DNA from: a virus
UHGV virus genome: UHGV-0078064
DNA length: 14,337 nt
Reading direction: 5' to 3' (one strand)
The position numbers and the translations under genes were made by a program. Within the stretch, counting starts at the first letter, position 1; each line of letters begins with the position of its first letter. Below the pieces are notes generated by a model, which was not told where the DNA came from, did not search any database, and was given only the letters and a program-made list of their open reading frames with translations. This document shows positions 5,885-10,218 of this stretch, one piece after another.

Positions 5885-6349
5885 CTATCGACGGCACTGC
5901 TGCCAGATAACACCACCGGGGAAACATTCCATCATGATGGCCGTGCGGACATAGGAAGCCAGTTCATCCATCGCTTTCTTGTCTGCTGCCATTTGCTTTG
6001 TGACATCCAGCGCCGCACATTCAGCAGCGTTTTTCAGCGCGTTTTCGATCAACGTTTCAATGTTGGTATCAACACCAGGTTTAACTTTGAACTTATCGGC
6101 ACTGACGGTTACCTTGTTCTGCGCTGGCTCATCACGCTGGATACCAAGGCTGATGTTGTAGATATTGGTCACCGGCTGAGGTGTTTCGATTGCCGCTGCG
6201 TGGATAGCACCATTTGCGATAGCGGCGTCCTTGATGAATGACACTCCATTGCGAATAAGTTCGAAGGAGACGGTGTCACGAATGCGCTGGTCCAGCTCGT
6301 CGATTGCCTTTTGTGCAGCAGAGGTATCAATCTCAACGCCAAGCGTCAT
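5885..6349 (-). CDS. Hypothetical protein, cos-proximal late-strand accessory gene
   Basis: 154-aa ORF (MTLGVEIDTSAAQKAIDELDQRIRDTVSFELIRNG...) with ATG start, 12 nt downstream of the preceding gene's stop, ending 55-60 nt before cosN. No family recognised from memory. Occupies the position of lambda's post-bor ORFs but does not resemble them by size or order. Confidence 0.6.
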   Translation of the reverse strand: MTLGVEIDTSAAQKAIDELDQRIRDTVSFELIRNGVSFIKDAAIANGAIHAAAIETPQPVTNIYNISLGIQRDEPAQNKVTVSADKFKVKPGVDTNIETLIENALKNAAECAALDVTKQMAADKKAMDELASYVRTAIMMECFPGGVIWQQCRR

Positions 6350-6361
6350 CGAAGCGCAATA

Positions 6362-6613
6362 TTACTGCTCACCAAAACGCGTATTGACCAGGTGTTCAAC
6401 GGCAAATTTCTGCCCTTCTGATGTCAGAAAGGTAAAGTGATTTTCTTTCTGGTATTCAGTTGCTGTGTGTCTGGTTTCAGCAAAACCAAGCTCGCGCAAT
6501 TCGGCTGTGCCAGATTTAGAAGGCAGATCACCAGACAGCAACGCGCCACGGAAAAACAGCGCATAAAGCACTTCATTAGCAGCGCCAGATAGCGTAATGA
6601 TTTTGTTACTCAT
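6362..6613 (-). CDS. Hypothetical small protein, cos-proximal late-strand accessory gene
   Basis: 83 aa from the ATG at 6611-6613 (MSNKIITLSGAANEVLYALFFRGALLSGDL...), with AAGGAAA SD about 6 nt upstream. The ORF track's 96-aa version starts at a TTG at 6652 with no SD. No family recognised. Confidence 0.6.
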   Translation of the reverse strand: MSNKIITLSGAANEVLYALFFRGALLSGDLPSKSGTAELRELGFAETRHTATEYQKENHFTFLTSEGQKFAVEHLVNTRFGEQ

Positions 6614-6632
6614 GGAATATTTCCTTTTAGGC

Positions 6633-6686
6633 GTGAGCCTGTCGCACGGCAAAGCCGCCGAAAGTTAACGGTTTGCCCAGGCTCAC
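6633..6686. repeat. Perfect 9-bp inverted repeat GTGAGCCTG / CAGGCTCAC with a 36-bp spacer that contains a nested GGCAAA/TTTGCC pair
   Basis: Read directly: arms at 6633-6641 and 6678-6686, nested complementary hexamers at 6648-6653 and 6672-6677, GTTAAC palindrome in the centre. Lies 20-73 nt upstream of the 83-aa gene start. Confidence 0.7.
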
Positions 6687-6724
6687 AGCTGAAAGACTTT
6701 CTACGATGTGCGCGTGCGATGCGC

Positions 6725-6749
6725 ATAAAAAAGCCGCGTGATGGCGGCT
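6725..6749 (-). terminator. Candidate rho-independent terminator (minus strand)
   Basis: Minus-strand RNA: AGCCGC-CAUCAC-GCGGCU (6-bp GC-rich stem, 6-nt loop) followed by UUUUUAU. The + strand tail is weaker (ACUGUUUG). Confidence 0.55.
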
Positions 6750-6878: not shown

Positions 6879-7139
6879 ATGTCAGAAGGTTTTGGTTTAA
6901 AAGAAAAGGTTGAGCAGTTAGAAAAAGAATTAGCCGTACAAAAAATAGCAAATCAGCTTGCTTTTGGAGCACTAATTAAAGCAGTTAATGAGCTGTACCC
7001 GAACAAAGATTTATATGATGGGTTGACAAAATTTGTCCAGGAAAAACTTGATCCTGAACGTGTTAAAAACATCCCTAATCTTCACGAGGCCTTTCTAGAA
7101 GCTGCGAAAATACTGAGGACTGACGCATCTCCTGAATAA
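6879..7139 (+). CDS. Hypothetical protein encoded on the opposite strand, AT-rich (moron-like)
   Basis: 86-aa ORF (MSEGFGLKEKVEQLEKELAVQKIANQLAFGALIKAVNELYPNKDLYDGL...), with AAGGA SD 7 nt upstream of the ATG. Conspicuously AT-rich relative to flanking phage genes. It is the only convincing + strand gene in the window and sits where lambda has bor (also opposite strand), but the product is not Bor-like and has no lipoprotein signal. Confidence 0.6.
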   Translation: MSEGFGLKEKVEQLEKELAVQKIANQLAFGALIKAVNELYPNKDLYDGLTKFVQEKLDPERVKNIPNLHEAFLEAAKILRTDASPE

Positions 7140-7233
7140 TTTTATCAACAAAGGCAGTTGTGTCCTCTTGCTTTTCATTCACAATGCATGTGACTGCCTT
7201 TTCTAAAGCTGTAATTCGTTCTTCAAGTGTCAT
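7075..7233 (-). CDS. Possible small ORF (52 aa) convergent with and overlapping the 3' end of the + strand gene
   Basis: ATG at 7231-7233 (MTLEERITALEKAVTCIVNEKQEDTTAFVDKIIQEMRQSSVFSQLLERPRED) preceded by AGGAG with 5-nt spacing. Overlaps the + gene by 65 bp. The ORF track extends it to a TTG at 7257. Coding status uncertain. Confidence 0.3.
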   Translation of the reverse strand: MTLEERITALEKAVTCIVNEKQEDTTAFVDKIIQEMRQSSVFSQLLERPRED

Positions 7234-7292
7234 ACCCACTCCTGTCATTGGCTTCAAAATGATAAACCCCGCATTTGCAAGTCCTATTTATA

Positions 7293-7331
7293 CCCCGCAG
7301 GGGATAAAAACCATATTATCCGCTTGCGGGG
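7293..7331. repeat. Imperfect palindrome CCCCGCAGGGGATAA-(8 nt)-TTATCCGCTTGCGGGG
   Basis: Read directly: GGATAA/TTATCC (6 bp) and CCCCGC/GCGGGG (6 bp) arms separated by a small internal loop. No clean U-tract on either strand. On the minus strand it abuts a TATAAAT element. Confidence 0.6.
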
Positions 7332-7373
7332 ATATCCATTATCAAGCCCACCAGCAGGTGAGCTTTGGAATGG

Positions 7374-7631
7374 TTACTTCGCTTTTGCTTCCGCTCGCTT
7401 ACGCCGGCGCTCTTCTTTCCTCTCGGCTTTTGCCATGTCCATGAATGCCTGCATGATCGAGTTCCGCATCATGTAGCTGACAAAGTGATGGTTGACACAG
7501 CCGTTGAGGCGCAGCTGCTCGCCAAACTCATCCACCGAGGCCAATGCTTCCATCATGCCCTTCTCGCCTTTCATGAACTCTGAGAAGTCGCGCCCCGCTC
7601 TGGAGGCGCATTCTATTATTCGGGTGCTCAT
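7374..7631 (-). CDS. Hypothetical small protein with a lysine/arginine-rich C-terminal tail, coupled to the upstream KilA-N gene
   Basis: 85 aa from the ATG at 7629-7631 (MSTRIIECASRAGRDFSEFMKGEKGMMEALASVDEFGEQL...AKAERKEERRRKRAEAKAK). Its start is 2 nt after the KilA-N gene stop (TGAtcATG). The ORF track's 105-aa version overlaps the upstream gene. Confidence 0.55.
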   Translation of the reverse strand: MSTRIIECASRAGRDFSEFMKGEKGMMEALASVDEFGEQLRLNGCVNHHFVSYMMRNSIMQAFMDMAKAERKEERRRKRAEAKAK

Positions 7632-7633
7632 GA

Positions 7634-8362
7634 TCAGGCCGCCGCATAGAGCAATTTCATCTGCCCTTTCACCGGGAATGCCGACATGCAACGCGCTTCG
7701 AAATCACGATAATCAGAGCACCCATTGGCAATGCTGGTAACGGCAATGATCTGTCGCTCAACCAATGTCAGCGCGTCAGGTTTAAGGTGCTGATGGATTT
7801 TGTCTCCCGCAGCCAGCCGTCTTTTAACCTCTGCATATACTTCTGGTGGTAATACCGGGCCATATACCCACTTGGCACTGATCATCCCAAATAGTGCGGG
7901 GCGACGACCTGGTCGATGACGGGGCAGCCCTGACATTTTGAACATCGCAGAATAAAACGGATCGCTAAACCTCTTTTCCCATGGCTGAGATTTATCCAGA
8001 AGGAAAATAGCCTTTATTCTTTCATCGTCGATATGATGAACGGAACCCTGAATGATTGCGTCAATTTGCTCATCACACCAGATCTCAAAATCTACAGAAA
8101 GCCATCGAGCAAATCTGACCGCCAGTTTTGGGTGAAGCCATGTTCCGCCGCCACGGTCTTTGCGAGCGCGGCTGGTTTTTACATATGTGATATTCCCATA
8201 TCTACTCTTTAACGCCTCGATGTAACGGACAGTCTCAGGAAGCCTAAGCCACTGAGCCGGCTCCTTGTTGAACTTGTCAGCTGCCGCAGTCGCGTCAAAC
8301 CAGCCATCGTCAGAAAAACGCATGGGATGGCCTTCGAAATCAATCGGGATGATATTGGACAT
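7634..8362 (-). CDS. KilA-N domain protein (N-terminal KilA-N/APSES-type DNA-binding domain; C-terminal half unassigned)
   Basis: 243 aa from the ATG at 8360-8362 (MSNIIPIDFEGHPMRFSDDGWFDATAAADKFNKEPAQWLRLPETVRYIEAL...GGGTWLHPKLAVRFARWLSVDFEIW), a pattern typical of KilA-N domains. AAGG SD about 9 nt upstream. The ORF track's 267-aa version begins at a GTG with no SD. Confidence 0.7.
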   Translation of the reverse strand: MSNIIPIDFEGHPMRFSDDGWFDATAAADKFNKEPAQWLRLPETVRYIEALKSRYGNITYVKTSRARKDRGGGTWLHPKLAVRFARWLSVDFEIWCDEQIDAIIQGSVHHIDDERIKAIFLLDKSQPWEKRFSDPFYSAMFKMSGLPRHRPGRRPALFGMISAKWVYGPVLPPEVYAEVKRRLAAGDKIHQHLKPDALTLVERQIIAVTSIANGCSDYRDFEARCMSAFPVKGQMKLLYAAA

Positions 8363-8512
8363 CGTATTTACCTTTTTGGTGATATGAGCCAGTTCTCGCA
8401 GACATGGACAGCCCAAGAGCGGCACGATGTAAGCCACCGTCCTGTCTCTGTCTCATATCCCGAAAAGCTCTTGGTTGATATGCGCACGAGAATGCGCGTT
8501 TACTGCGGACAT

Positions 8513-8535
8513 AAAAAAGCCCCGCATCGCGAGGC
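8513..8535 (-). terminator. Candidate rho-independent terminator downstream of Rz
   Basis: Minus-strand RNA: GCCUCGC-GAU-GCGGGGC (7-bp stem with one G.U pair) followed by UUUUUU. Lies about 35 nt past the Rz stop. Confidence 0.6.
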
Positions 8536-8568
8536 TCATTAAATGGACTTTGTGATTTGCAAAAAAAA

Positions 8569-9942: not shown

Positions 9943-10077
9943 CCCGCTTTCACGAAGCCAGCCATTGCGCTGGTTTTCTTTTATGCAAAGCACACCGCAC
10001 CGTAGCCACAGCGGATAAGGTGATTATTTTTGTCTGTCTGGTATTTGGTTTGATGTGCTTTCAGAAAGGTCGTGATT

Positions 10078-10112
10078 AAAACGCAAAAGCCCCGAGCTAT
10101 TAACTCAGGGCT
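10078..10112 (-). terminator. Promoter-proximal hairpin plus U-tract about 30-60 nt downstream of the pR' start; candidate tR' analogue ending a short 6S-like leader RNA
   Basis: Minus-strand RNA: AGCCCUGAG-UUAAUAG-CUCGGGGCU (9-bp stem with one G.U) followed by UUUGCGUUUU. The + strand version is also followed by a U-rich tail (UUUAUUU), so it may act bidirectionally. Confidence 0.5.
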
Positions 10113-10140
10113 TTATTTAACGAGTGCATTTATCCATCGT

Positions 10141-10176
10141 TGGGTCAAATTTACCCAACTTTATTCAAAAAGTCAA
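10141..10176 (-). promoter_or_regulatory. pR': Late promoter pR' with the overlapping Q-binding/qut region
   Basis: Reverse complement reads TTGACT-(17 nt)-TAAATT followed by TGACCCAACGATGG, matching the lambda pR' -35, -10 and initial transcribed sequence as recalled. Sits immediately downstream of the Q stop. Confidence 0.8.
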
Positions 10177-10218
10177 TATCATGCCGTAAAGATGTTGCCA
10201 TCCGTGGCAATCATGCTG

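Follow-up and report, generated by a model that had tools for sequence, protein, structure and literature searches.

A KilA-N/P63C Gene Pair behind a Predicted Shine–Dalgarno-Hiding RNA Hairpin in the Late Operon of a Lambdoid Prophage

Two genes that separate the lysis module of a lambdoid prophage from its packaging module are read here as a dispensable cassette of accessory genes of the "Bro network" type, encoding a DNA-binding module that acts late and under tight gating. We give this reading about even odds (0.5). As a gene pair the locus is ordinary, since both members are already annotated in HK97-like prophages as uncharacterised accessory genes of the HK97 type. Its most interesting feature is the RNA that precedes them: a strongly covarying hairpin, predicted to hide the Shine–Dalgarno sequence (SD) of the first gene and apparently uncatalogued. 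The DNA analysed is a stretch of 14,337 nucleotides from the virus genome UHGV-0078064, referred to here as the window.

Results

Reading the minus strand confirmed the two open reading frames of the original prediction. The first (7634–8362; ATG at 8362, TGA stop at 7636–7634) encodes a KilA-N + P63C protein of 242 residues; the 243 residues given previously for the same frame had included the stop codon. After a gap of 2 nt (TC) follows an 85-aa frame on the same strand (7374–7631; ATG at 7631, stop at 7376–7374), the product of which ends in ...KAERKEERRRKRAEAKAK. The pair is preceded by Q, S, R and Rz/Rz1 and followed by Nu1, A, W, B and C, as expected for the proposed position in the late operon. 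The pair had been placed just after Rz and ahead of a terminator of its own. Rz is indeed found upstream, but a strong intrinsic terminator on the minus strand (8517–8537; GAGCCTCGCGATGCGGGGCTT with a T-run, annotated in mEp235) marks the boundary between Rz and the cassette, and together with a structured spacer of 205 nt it separates the two. The proposed downstream terminator is a weak match at 7281–7268, and the next strong intrinsic terminator (6732–6749, minus strand) closes the transcription unit of the pair and marks the start of the following cassette. A consensus scan of the minus strand from 8537 to 8362, which may overlook promoters that are weak or depend on an activator, found no sigma-70-like site. 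The first reading of this DNA had missed both the upstream terminator and the SD-sequestering leader. It had correctly noted a second antirepressor-like module in the nin region, a Rha + ANT protein that also belongs to the Bro network.

The presence of an N-terminal KilA-N domain was confirmed by Pfam, which assigns residues 8–105 (nt 8048–8341, minus strand) to PF04383 with E = 1.2e-22 and a score of 80.2 bits (curated threshold 23.8). The domain has the APSES-like alpha/beta DNA-binding fold. The C-terminal half, previously regarded as unassignable, matches the P63C profile (PF10546, residues 117–192, nt 7787–8014, minus strand; E = 7.8e-11, 42.9 bits, curated threshold 26.1). Conservation continues past this match to about residue 235, and the region forms one all-alpha domain that reaches the C-terminus. 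Over its full length the protein matches phrog_1136 (1e-122). Fold and sequence searches with P63C returned no relative that would confer a biochemical activity, and the domain shows neither a motif nor a fold recognisable as that of a nuclease. An alternative in-frame GTG start at 8437, used in annotations of 263–267 aa, was rejected; it falls inside the conserved RNA leader, and Klebsiella phage KP12 has a 1-nt indel there.

The 85-aa protein consists of three helices, the last of which is poly-basic, and matches phrog_875 over its full length (1e-53). This match and dN/dS values of 0.04–0.30, with synonymous sites near saturation, support the view that the small frame is coding and conserved in relatives. 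The large protein retains about 92% amino acid identity with its KP12 counterpart despite pS = 0.75. By these measures both frames are genuine genes under strong purifying selection and not chance ORFs. The small protein gave nothing significant in searches with PDB Foldseek and BFVD or in phmmer and profile searches of the PDB; it is a generic three-helix protein, likewise with no recognisable motif or fold of a nuclease. Distant relatives carry a phrog_875-type domain as a fusion with the nuclease-like T5orf172/MUG113 domain. One such fusion gene adjoins a KilA-N + P63C gene, in a different gene order, and another occupies the slot between lysis and terminase genes. We considered a Cys/His metal site made of C8, C45, H48 and H49, which are invariant in close relatives, and rejected it because C8, C45 and H48 are not conserved in the distant T5orf172 fusions.

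The short gap between the two genes had been taken to indicate a co-translated functional pair. The junctions fit co-translation: the gap measures +2 or −4 nt in more than 80 loci, the latter being an ATGA overlap in ORF11CD3-type loci, and the small ORF lacks a good SD of its own (the sequence up to its start is GCGGCGGCCTGATC-ATG). A close stop and start kept in relatives and a weak independent SD are the marks of a translationally coupled operon. The functional pair is a different matter, as the two genes are not obligate companions. Among 80 KilA-N + P63C loci, the small gene is present in 23, a different coupled gene (phrog_24826, product of about 120 aa) in 18 and neither in 38. Because 57 of the 80 loci lack the small gene, the KilA-N + P63C and 85-aa proteins need not act together. 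KilA-N + P63C proteins scored 99–100% identical to that of the window occur with either partner, and there are identical or 79% identical proteins that lack the small gene and have another partner or none. Seen from the small gene, the linkage is strict: in about 90 loci it invariably lies behind a KilA-N gene, either of the P63C type or of the unrelated ORF11CD3 type. The pairing is one-way, with the small gene as a facultative add-on that occurs only behind a KilA-N gene.

The two genes may then form no functional pair at all, the 85-aa gene being independent cargo (for example, a host- or defence-modulating gene) that borrows the expression signals of the KilA-N gene by coupling, like phrog_24826. 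The facultative pairing, the exchange of partners behind near-identical proteins and the occurrence of the small gene behind an unrelated KilA-N + ORF11CD3 protein would all fit this view. We nevertheless consider it unlikely. The small domain stays confined to KilA-N neighbourhoods, and chance hitch-hiking explains poorly why a very distant, nuclease-fused relative again adjoins a KilA-N + P63C gene.

The structured spacer upstream of the pair contains two RNA elements. The first is a small conserved hairpin, GCGCA-TTCTCG-TGCGC (8482–8497, minus strand), read directly from the sequences; its stem covaries between loci (for example TGCGT/ACGCA, TTGCC/GGCAA, GCTC/GAGC) around a loop of roughly AUCxCAC. 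The second is a structured 5′ leader RNA of about 100 nt (8367–8471, minus strand; covariance model R2, 76 bits, E 8e-19), a long irregular hairpin with its 3′ end 4 nt before the ATG at 8362. In the basal helix of this leader an anti-SD (CUUUU) pairs with the SD AAAAG(G) of the KilA-N gene, and the 3′ side carries a conserved 6-nt bulge that is GUGNGA-like. In an alignment fitted to the model, built from covariance models and a seed structure defined by hand, pairing is seen in 93.9% of pair cells, versus 67.9% in shuffled and 40–50% in slid controls, and compensatory double changes occur in 26 of 28 pairs. In the same alignment each of the 6 pairs of the anti-SD:SD helix (helix 1) shows compensatory changes, and the helix is paired in 86% of its cells. 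Such conserved anti-SD:SD pairing is what defines an RBS-sequestering hairpin. RNAalifold on a plain MAFFT alignment recovers 6 inner pairs only, so that independent support covers the inner helices alone. Identity among leaders is 92–100% at the nucleotide level where that of the coding sequences is 74–88%, and ORF11CD3-type leaders score 59–88 bits in the sense versus 32–37 bits in the antisense direction. A search of Rfam 15 found no covariance model matching the leader at E ≤ 1; the sole match in the window is unrelated and sub-threshold, at 10075–10180. Kink-turns, the boxA/boxB nut site of lambda and put-like antiterminators of HK022 were compared by eye and rejected as identities of the leader, their motifs being unfit or unconserved.

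In the leader of the window, the consensus fold (−37.7 kcal/mol) is not the predicted minimum free energy (MFE) structure, which is an alternative fold at −41 kcal/mol. For this reason, sequestration of the SD in this particular copy may be partial. The window contains a second copy of the leader (6618–6700, minus strand; R2, 54.7 bits, E 6e-13; fold z = −3.1), the MFE structure of which is the consensus fold and shows the pairing with the SD directly. This copy lies immediately 5′ of an 83-aa ORF (MSNKIITL...; 6362–6613, minus strand, ATG at 6613), and this ORF together with another at 5885–6349 matches a single PHROG family of 242 aa, phrog_17079.

Comparison of loci indicates that the two genes travel together as a cassette. 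In all related loci that were inspected it starts with an intrinsic terminator, followed by the small hairpin and the leader; the hairpin and T-run of the terminator recur with different stem sequences. Wherever upstream sequence sufficed, the leader precedes essentially every KilA-N gene of both types. The same terminator–hairpin–leader chassis also precedes a P22-Ant-like gene and the free-standing HNH endonuclease genes of three loci (L010, L122 and L160). Phage KP12 carries the same pair, leader and terminator between its tail tube and chaperone genes. More generally, the cassette sits at module junctions in unrelated phage types, and its presence is patchy among near-identical phages. To judge from the truncated remnants that are all HK75 and HK633 retain, and from lambda, which has no match to the leader model, the cassette is dispensable. 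Of 5426 complete E. coli genomes, 376 (about 7%) carry the ORF11CD3-type version and 18 the P63C-type version of the window.

This distribution raises the question of selfish spread. In the broadest form of the idea, KilA-N-family, P22-Ant-like and HNH genes of enterobacterial temperate phages would share one undescribed chassis, composed of a terminator, a small hairpin and an SD-masking riboregulator of about 100 nt with a factor-recognised bulge, and the KilA-N + P63C/phrog_875 pair would be a homing-like selfish element and would not serve to regulate the life cycle of its phage. We think this improbable, though not far-fetched. More specifically, the KilA-N + P63C protein, with or without the small protein, might promote copying of the element into cassette-less relatives during co-infection, with the chassis limiting the cost to the carrier. 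The shared chassis of the HNH genes, the occupied module junctions, the patchiness and the fusion of the small domain to GIY-YIG-like T5orf172/MUG113 in distant relatives are consistent with such a mechanism, as is the RBS-sequestration logic of T4 homing endonuclease genes (PMC2988022). Neither P63C nor the small protein shows a nuclease motif or fold, however, and ordinary recombination also accounts for lambdoid mosaicism, which leaves homing decidedly doubtful.

Discussion

From the domain content and the layout of the locus we infer the function of the cassette, namely that of a late, tightly gated accessory DNA-binding module. Lambdoid late genes are served by a single promoter, pR′. Because no promoter was found at the cassette, the pair would be transcribed when the Q-antiterminated late transcript reads through the upstream terminator. 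Such Q-dependent transcription would leave the pair silent in the lysogen. On the late transcript the leader would hold down or gate translation of the KilA-N gene, by analogy with the RBS-sequestering hairpins of T4 homing endonuclease genes. The leader might be opened by a protein, by a switch to a competing fold, or by cleavage of the RNase III type at its conserved 3′ bulge. The small ORF would be translated by termination–reinitiation coupling. The KilA-N protein is a predicted sequence-specific DNA binder that would act late in infection, in regulation or in inter-phage or host conflict rather than in lysis, with the small basic protein as a putative nucleic-acid-binding or adaptor partner. 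Candidate binding sites in the window are the DNA of the GCGCA-N6-TGCGC hairpin and the CCCCGC palindromes at 7260–7345.

A role in conflict could also take the form of prophage defence. Abortive infection is caused by BstA, a protein of two domains that is encoded by prophages and has an N-terminus resembling KilA-N (PMC8585504), and the KilA-N + P63C gene is likewise an accessory prophage gene. By this model the KilA-N domain would sense foreign phage DNA, the C-terminal domain would be the effector, and the small protein would serve as a modulator or self-immunity factor. Homology to a catalogued defence protein does not extend beyond the KilA-N core: among the defence families of PADLOC there is only a 30-residue KilA-N match to the candidate PDC-S22 (E 9.5e-5). 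The cassette also has no detected lysogenic promoter, stands behind a terminator and a sequestered SD, and lies in the late operon away from the immunity region. A BstA-type function is therefore very unlikely.

That a toxic KilA-N protein is neutralised by the 85-aa protein, as kil by anti-kil, is hardly credible: the lethality of P1 KilA, the tight coupling of the small downstream gene and the heavy translational damping predicted for the leader would suit a harmful product, but the one-way pairing argues against an obligate toxin/antidote pair, near-identical proteins do with a different partner or with none, the small gene is also found with a KilA-N protein whose C-terminal domain is unrelated, and searches of NCBIfam and PADLOC gave no meaningful match for the pair and none to a toxin–antitoxin family. 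The toxicity-and-rescue logic of the original prediction is weakened because the pair is not obligate; its P1 KilA precedent keeps the shared domain and is an analogy at that level only.

The one-way linkage, the fusion to a nuclease-like domain, the mobility of the cassette and the SD-masking leader are new here. Linkage, fusion and leader provide the long-ignored loci annotated as "KilA-N domain-containing protein + hypothetical protein" with a testable logic. Should the leader prove to be a genuine riboregulator, it would represent a new RNA family in many enterobacterial prophages. It could also explain how phages tolerate potentially toxic or selfish DNA-binding genes in their late operons.

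Comparison with Known Systems

The closest documented relatives are HK97 gp73 (HK97p60) and HK97p61, which are the same genes at 98–99% nucleotide identity (98% for the KilA-N + P63C gene and gp73) likewise located behind Rz. In the HK97 reference sequence a frameshift close to the 3′ end of the small gene shortens it to 77 aa. The packaging genes differ, being lambda-type (Nu1/A) in the window and HNH plus an HK97-type terminase in HK97. The same pair is found in HK022, HK446 and mEp234, mEp235, mEp506, mEpX1 and mEpX2, and records from 2025 name the large protein "KilA-N-P63C". In the literature searched we found no published function for the pair members of HK97, HK022 and the mEp phages, nor a functional study on KilA-N + P63C, HK97 gp73, ORF11CD3 or the mEp phages.

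Several domains of the Bro network are reportedly credited by Pfam to Iyer and colleagues. The network (KilA-N, Bro-N, ANT/KilA-C, Rha, P63C, ORF11CD3, T5orf172 and P22_AR_N) has been treated as a domain-shuffled network of phage proteins (PMC10111431). The window likewise fuses KilA-N to P63C, the alternative host of the small gene is KilA-N + ORF11CD3, and the small domain is itself fused to T5orf172 in relatives. The phrog_875 domain is not among the listed domains, and neither its exclusive linkage to KilA-N nor the shared RNA leader was found in the literature searched. BstA and P1 KilA have no detectable similarity to KilA-N + P63C outside the KilA-N domain, and differ from it in genomic position and expression logic.

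Phage morons in the sense of Hendrix, such as bor and lom of lambda or gp15 of HK97, resemble the cassette as non-essential insertions between conserved modules with a patchy distribution. Classic morons have a promoter of their own and are active in the prophage. In contrast, the cassette has a masked SD and, as far as the sigma-70 consensus scan can tell, a terminator in the place of the promoter.

The expression logic of the leader is closest to that of T4-type homing endonuclease genes (I-TevI/II/III, segB and mobE), in which a stable hairpin pairs with the SD (PMC2988022). In T4 these hairpins are short, and a late promoter inside them allows them to be bypassed. Unlike these, the leader described here is about 100 nt long, has conserved bulge and loop nucleotides, and follows a terminator and another hairpin; a sigma-70 consensus scan of 8367–8471 found no internal promoter-like site that could give a hairpin-free transcript. 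Both arrangements mask the SD of a potentially harmful, mobile gene within an essential operon, and some copies of the leader precede HNH endonuclease genes, as the T4-type hairpins precede endonuclease genes.

Gene Order and Encoded Proteins

The window contains a lambdoid prophage in which all genes relevant to the pair are on the minus strand. The nin region with its Rha+ANT protein (12395–11673) is followed by Q (10842–10219), the holin gene S, the endolysin gene R, and Rz/Rz1 (9006–8569). The pair comes next, and several small ORFs separate it from the packaging and head genes, which are of the lambda type (Nu1, A, W, B, and C). This gene order confirms the predicted location in the late operon. 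Both reading frames exist as originally predicted, except that the KilA-N gene (ATG 8362 to TGA 7636–7634) encodes 242 residues, since the earlier count of 243 included the stop codon. The small gene begins at ATG 7631, 2 nt past this stop, and encodes 85 residues with KAERKEERRRKRAEAKAK at the C-terminal end.

The pair had also been credited with its own terminator, but the stretch that separates the small ORF from the one after it contains just a weak terminator-like site (7281–7268). Three short CCCCGC-containing palindromes in this stretch (7260–7345: AACCCCGCATTTGC, TACCCCGCAGGGGATA, and ATCCGCTTGCGGGGAT) could be protein-binding sites. On the same strand, 140 nt past the small gene, is a 52-aa ORF (phrog_28630, 7075–7233 (-)) that has a strong Shine-Dalgarno sequence (SD; AGGAG) six nt 5' of its ATG. 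This ORF overlaps a convergent 86-aa ORF (phrog_21164, 6879–7139 (+)) oriented as lambda bor; both families are without assigned function.

Pfam profiles match both halves of the large protein. The predicted KilA-N domain covers residues 8–105 (E = 1.2e-22), and the C-terminal half, previously considered unassignable, matches P63C (residues 117–192, E = 7.8e-11). Among 40 aligned homologues, the protein is conserved to approximately residue 235, and the invariant positions include W128, F132, Y137, W165, Y167, P172, H190, Q191, D217, D220, F221, and G233. In an AlphaFold2 model (pLDDT 82.5), the N-domain is alpha/beta and the C-domain all-helical. The large protein combines a KilA-N/APSES fold with a P63C domain and is, by prediction, most probably a sequence-specific DNA binder. 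Several database entries (mEp235_059, P0121–P0123) start at an in-frame upstream GTG, giving 263–267 residues. We rejected this start: the extension (8363–8437 (-)) falls within a conserved RNA leader, and a 1-nt indel in the unrelated Klebsiella phage KP12 breaks its frame. Judging from these sequences, translation probably starts at ATG 8362.

The small gene is genuine, as predicted, because pairwise dN/dS values are 0.04–0.30 with synonymous sites near saturation, and because the family shows little or no variation in the motifs ECASRAGRDFSEF and GCVNHHF. Its product matches a single family, PHROG phrog_875, which carries no functional assignment there. Structure prediction gives three helices (pLDDT 92.6), the last of which (48–84) bears the basic tail; no significant structural or sequence relatives were found in PDB or BFVD. 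The family is very narrow: clustering at 90% identity yields 137 groups, all annotated as "hypothetical" and, where named, from Enterobacterales; when 1.84 billion cluster representatives were searched with a profile, just 21 matched. In the most distant relatives, the domain is fused to a T5orf172/MUG113 domain, which we take to be related to GIY-YIG nucleases. One fusion gene directly adjoins a KilA-N+P63C gene, and another occupies the lysis-terminase slot, as in the window. By analogy with the place of the domain in these fusions, the small protein may be a nucleic-acid-binding or adaptor module.

Three loci deserve separate mention. At L178 (3001–6495), in the tail region of a prophage, a T5orf172 fusion gene neighbours a KilA-N+P63C gene. 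The two adjoin a cluster of the P22 immI type that comprises a Bro-N gene, two Arc-family genes, and a weak fragment of P22_AR_N; our rebuilt covariance model of the leader (R2) detected no copy there. In the HK97 reference sequence (L001 1097–1330; also L103), a frameshift near the 3' end shortens the small gene to 77 aa without the basic tail, and the small protein of HK97 as sequenced may therefore not be fully functional. A 4-kb contig from a MAG labelled "Candidatus Nanosynbacter" (L007, JARKOR010000234.1) carries an E. coli-type cassette with 96% aa identity, which is probably a binning contaminant.

The 1.4-kb region is 97–99% identical to HK97 (gp73 + HK97p61), HK022, HK446, and mEp234/235/506/X1/X2. 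RefSeq lists the pair as "KilA-N domain-containing protein" and "hypothetical protein", and 2025 records name the large protein "KilA-N-P63C"; we found no functional study of the pair in the searchable literature. The gene pair has been annotated before and alone is of modest interest.

Linkage of the Two Genes

The linkage between the two genes is asymmetric. At the approximately 90 loci that carry it, the small gene always lies directly 3' of a KilA-N gene of one of two kinds. The first is KilA-N+P63C with the 2-nt gap of the window, or, in some diverged relatives (L114–116), a 4-nt overlap instead of the gap. The second encodes a 165-aa KilA-N+ORF11CD3 protein of unrelated sequence with a 4-nt overlap (ATGA), and is much commoner: of 5426 complete E. 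coli genomes, 376 carry it and 18 carry the P63C type. These tight junctions support the predicted translational coupling.

The converse does not hold. Among 80 KilA-N+P63C loci (52–100% identity), the small gene follows at 23, and at 18 its place is taken by another coupled gene, phrog_24826, of about 120 aa; at 38 the next element is a terminator or some unrelated gene. Either partner can accompany proteins that score 99–100% identity to KilA-N+P63C of the window. Both observations argue against an obligate toxin/antidote pair, and the original prediction of a functional pair fails as an obligate unit. The alternative partner (117–126 aa, without Pfam match or assigned function) starts just past the stop of identical or related KilA-N+P63C genes (L100, L110–L113, L119, L125, L158, L163–L173; for example, L112 1981–2340). 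The distribution fits a small gene that is a facultative add-on and relies on the KilA-N gene for expression. Mere hitch-hiking is argued against by the T5orf172 fusion beside KilA-N+P63C and by KP12, where the genes for the tail tube and the chaperone flank the whole unit of terminator, leader, and both genes.

A Conserved RNA Leader

Upstream of the pair, a strong intrinsic terminator 3' of Rz (8537–8517 (-), annotated as such in mEp235) is followed by a small hairpin (8497–8482 (-)) and a leader of approximately 105 nt that ends at the SD (8471–8367 (-); 76 bits, E = 8e-19). No sigma-70-like promoter was found between this terminator and the KilA-N gene. Nucleotide identity in the leader is 92–100%, as compared to 74–88% in the coding sequence with its saturated synonymous sites. 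The leader is not conserved as an N-terminal protein extension, since KP12 carries the 1-nt indel there.

Single-sequence folds of diverse leaders converge on one long irregular hairpin. In its basal helix the anti-SD CCUUU pairs with the SD AAAGG, and a 6–7-nt bulge on the 3' side (GUGNGA-like) lies between two inner helices. A covariance model was seeded with three sequences and rebuilt from 37. In the model-fitted alignment, 93.9% of pair cells are paired (67.9% after shuffling, 40–50% with slid partners), and compensatory double changes affect 26 of 28 pairs (271 cells observed, 82 expected). A plain MAFFT/RNAalifold run recovered covariation of the inner helices independently. The structure belongs to the mRNA strand, as it contains many U-G pairs and as ORF11CD3-type leaders score 59–88 bits in sense and 32–37 bits in antisense. 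For the copy upstream of the pair, the MFE structure (-41 kcal/mol) is an alternative that competes with the consensus fold (-37.7 kcal/mol).

At approximately 150 loci with enough upstream sequence, the model matches before KilA-N genes of both types almost without exception, and no Rfam 15 family matches the leader. The single Rfam match in the window at E ≤ 1 (SpF66_sRNA, 10075–10180 (-), downstream of Q) scores 23 bits, below the gathering score of 42; it ends 3' in a GC-rich stem and U-run, and we dismissed it as a chance likeness to a terminator-like hairpin.

A second leader copy in the window (6700–6618 (-); 54.7 bits, E = 6e-13) has the consensus fold as its MFE structure (z = -3.1). 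It follows a terminator (6749–6732 (-)) and precedes an 83-aa ORF (6613–6362 (-)) unrelated to KilA-N. The minus-strand ORFs at 6362–6652 (96/83 aa) and 5885–6349 (154 aa) correspond to residues 1–83 and 89–242 of phrog_17079 (242 aa), either as a gene split by a stop codon or as a true two-gene variant. Extra copies elsewhere, each with its own terminator and small hairpin, precede genes that we judged by eye from translations to encode free-standing HNH endonucleases, a further KilA-N+ORF11CD3 protein, and a protein with a P22 antirepressor-like N-terminus (L010 2577–3229; L122 and L160, ~1507–2203/1530–2226; L060 483–1162; L118 1072–1690).

Proposed Function and Precedents

HK75 and HK633 retain only truncated gp73 remnants, and the leader model has zero matches in the whole lambda genome. 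The cassette is therefore a dispensable element of the late region, in which a conserved small basic protein starts abutting the upstream stop, behind a terminator and an SD-masking leader. We propose that only terminator-resistant, Q-modified polymerase would transcribe it in lytic growth, and that it would hence be silent in lysogens. The leader would damp or gate translation of the KilA-N gene, and the small ORF may be translated by reinitiation. The cassette is unlikely to act in lysis itself because it is a separate terminator-bounded unit that also occurs among tail genes. Candidate roles are regulation, inter-phage conflict, and selfish spread.

The covarying leader and the cassette logic, including leaders before HNH endonuclease genes, appear to be undescribed and are readily testable. 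The closest precedent is provided by the hairpins of T4 homing-endonuclease genes, which likewise sequester the ribosome binding site (PMC2988022). In contrast to these hairpins, the cassette leader contains no internal promoter, so that it may have to be opened through a cut at the conserved bulge, by a protein, or by refolding.
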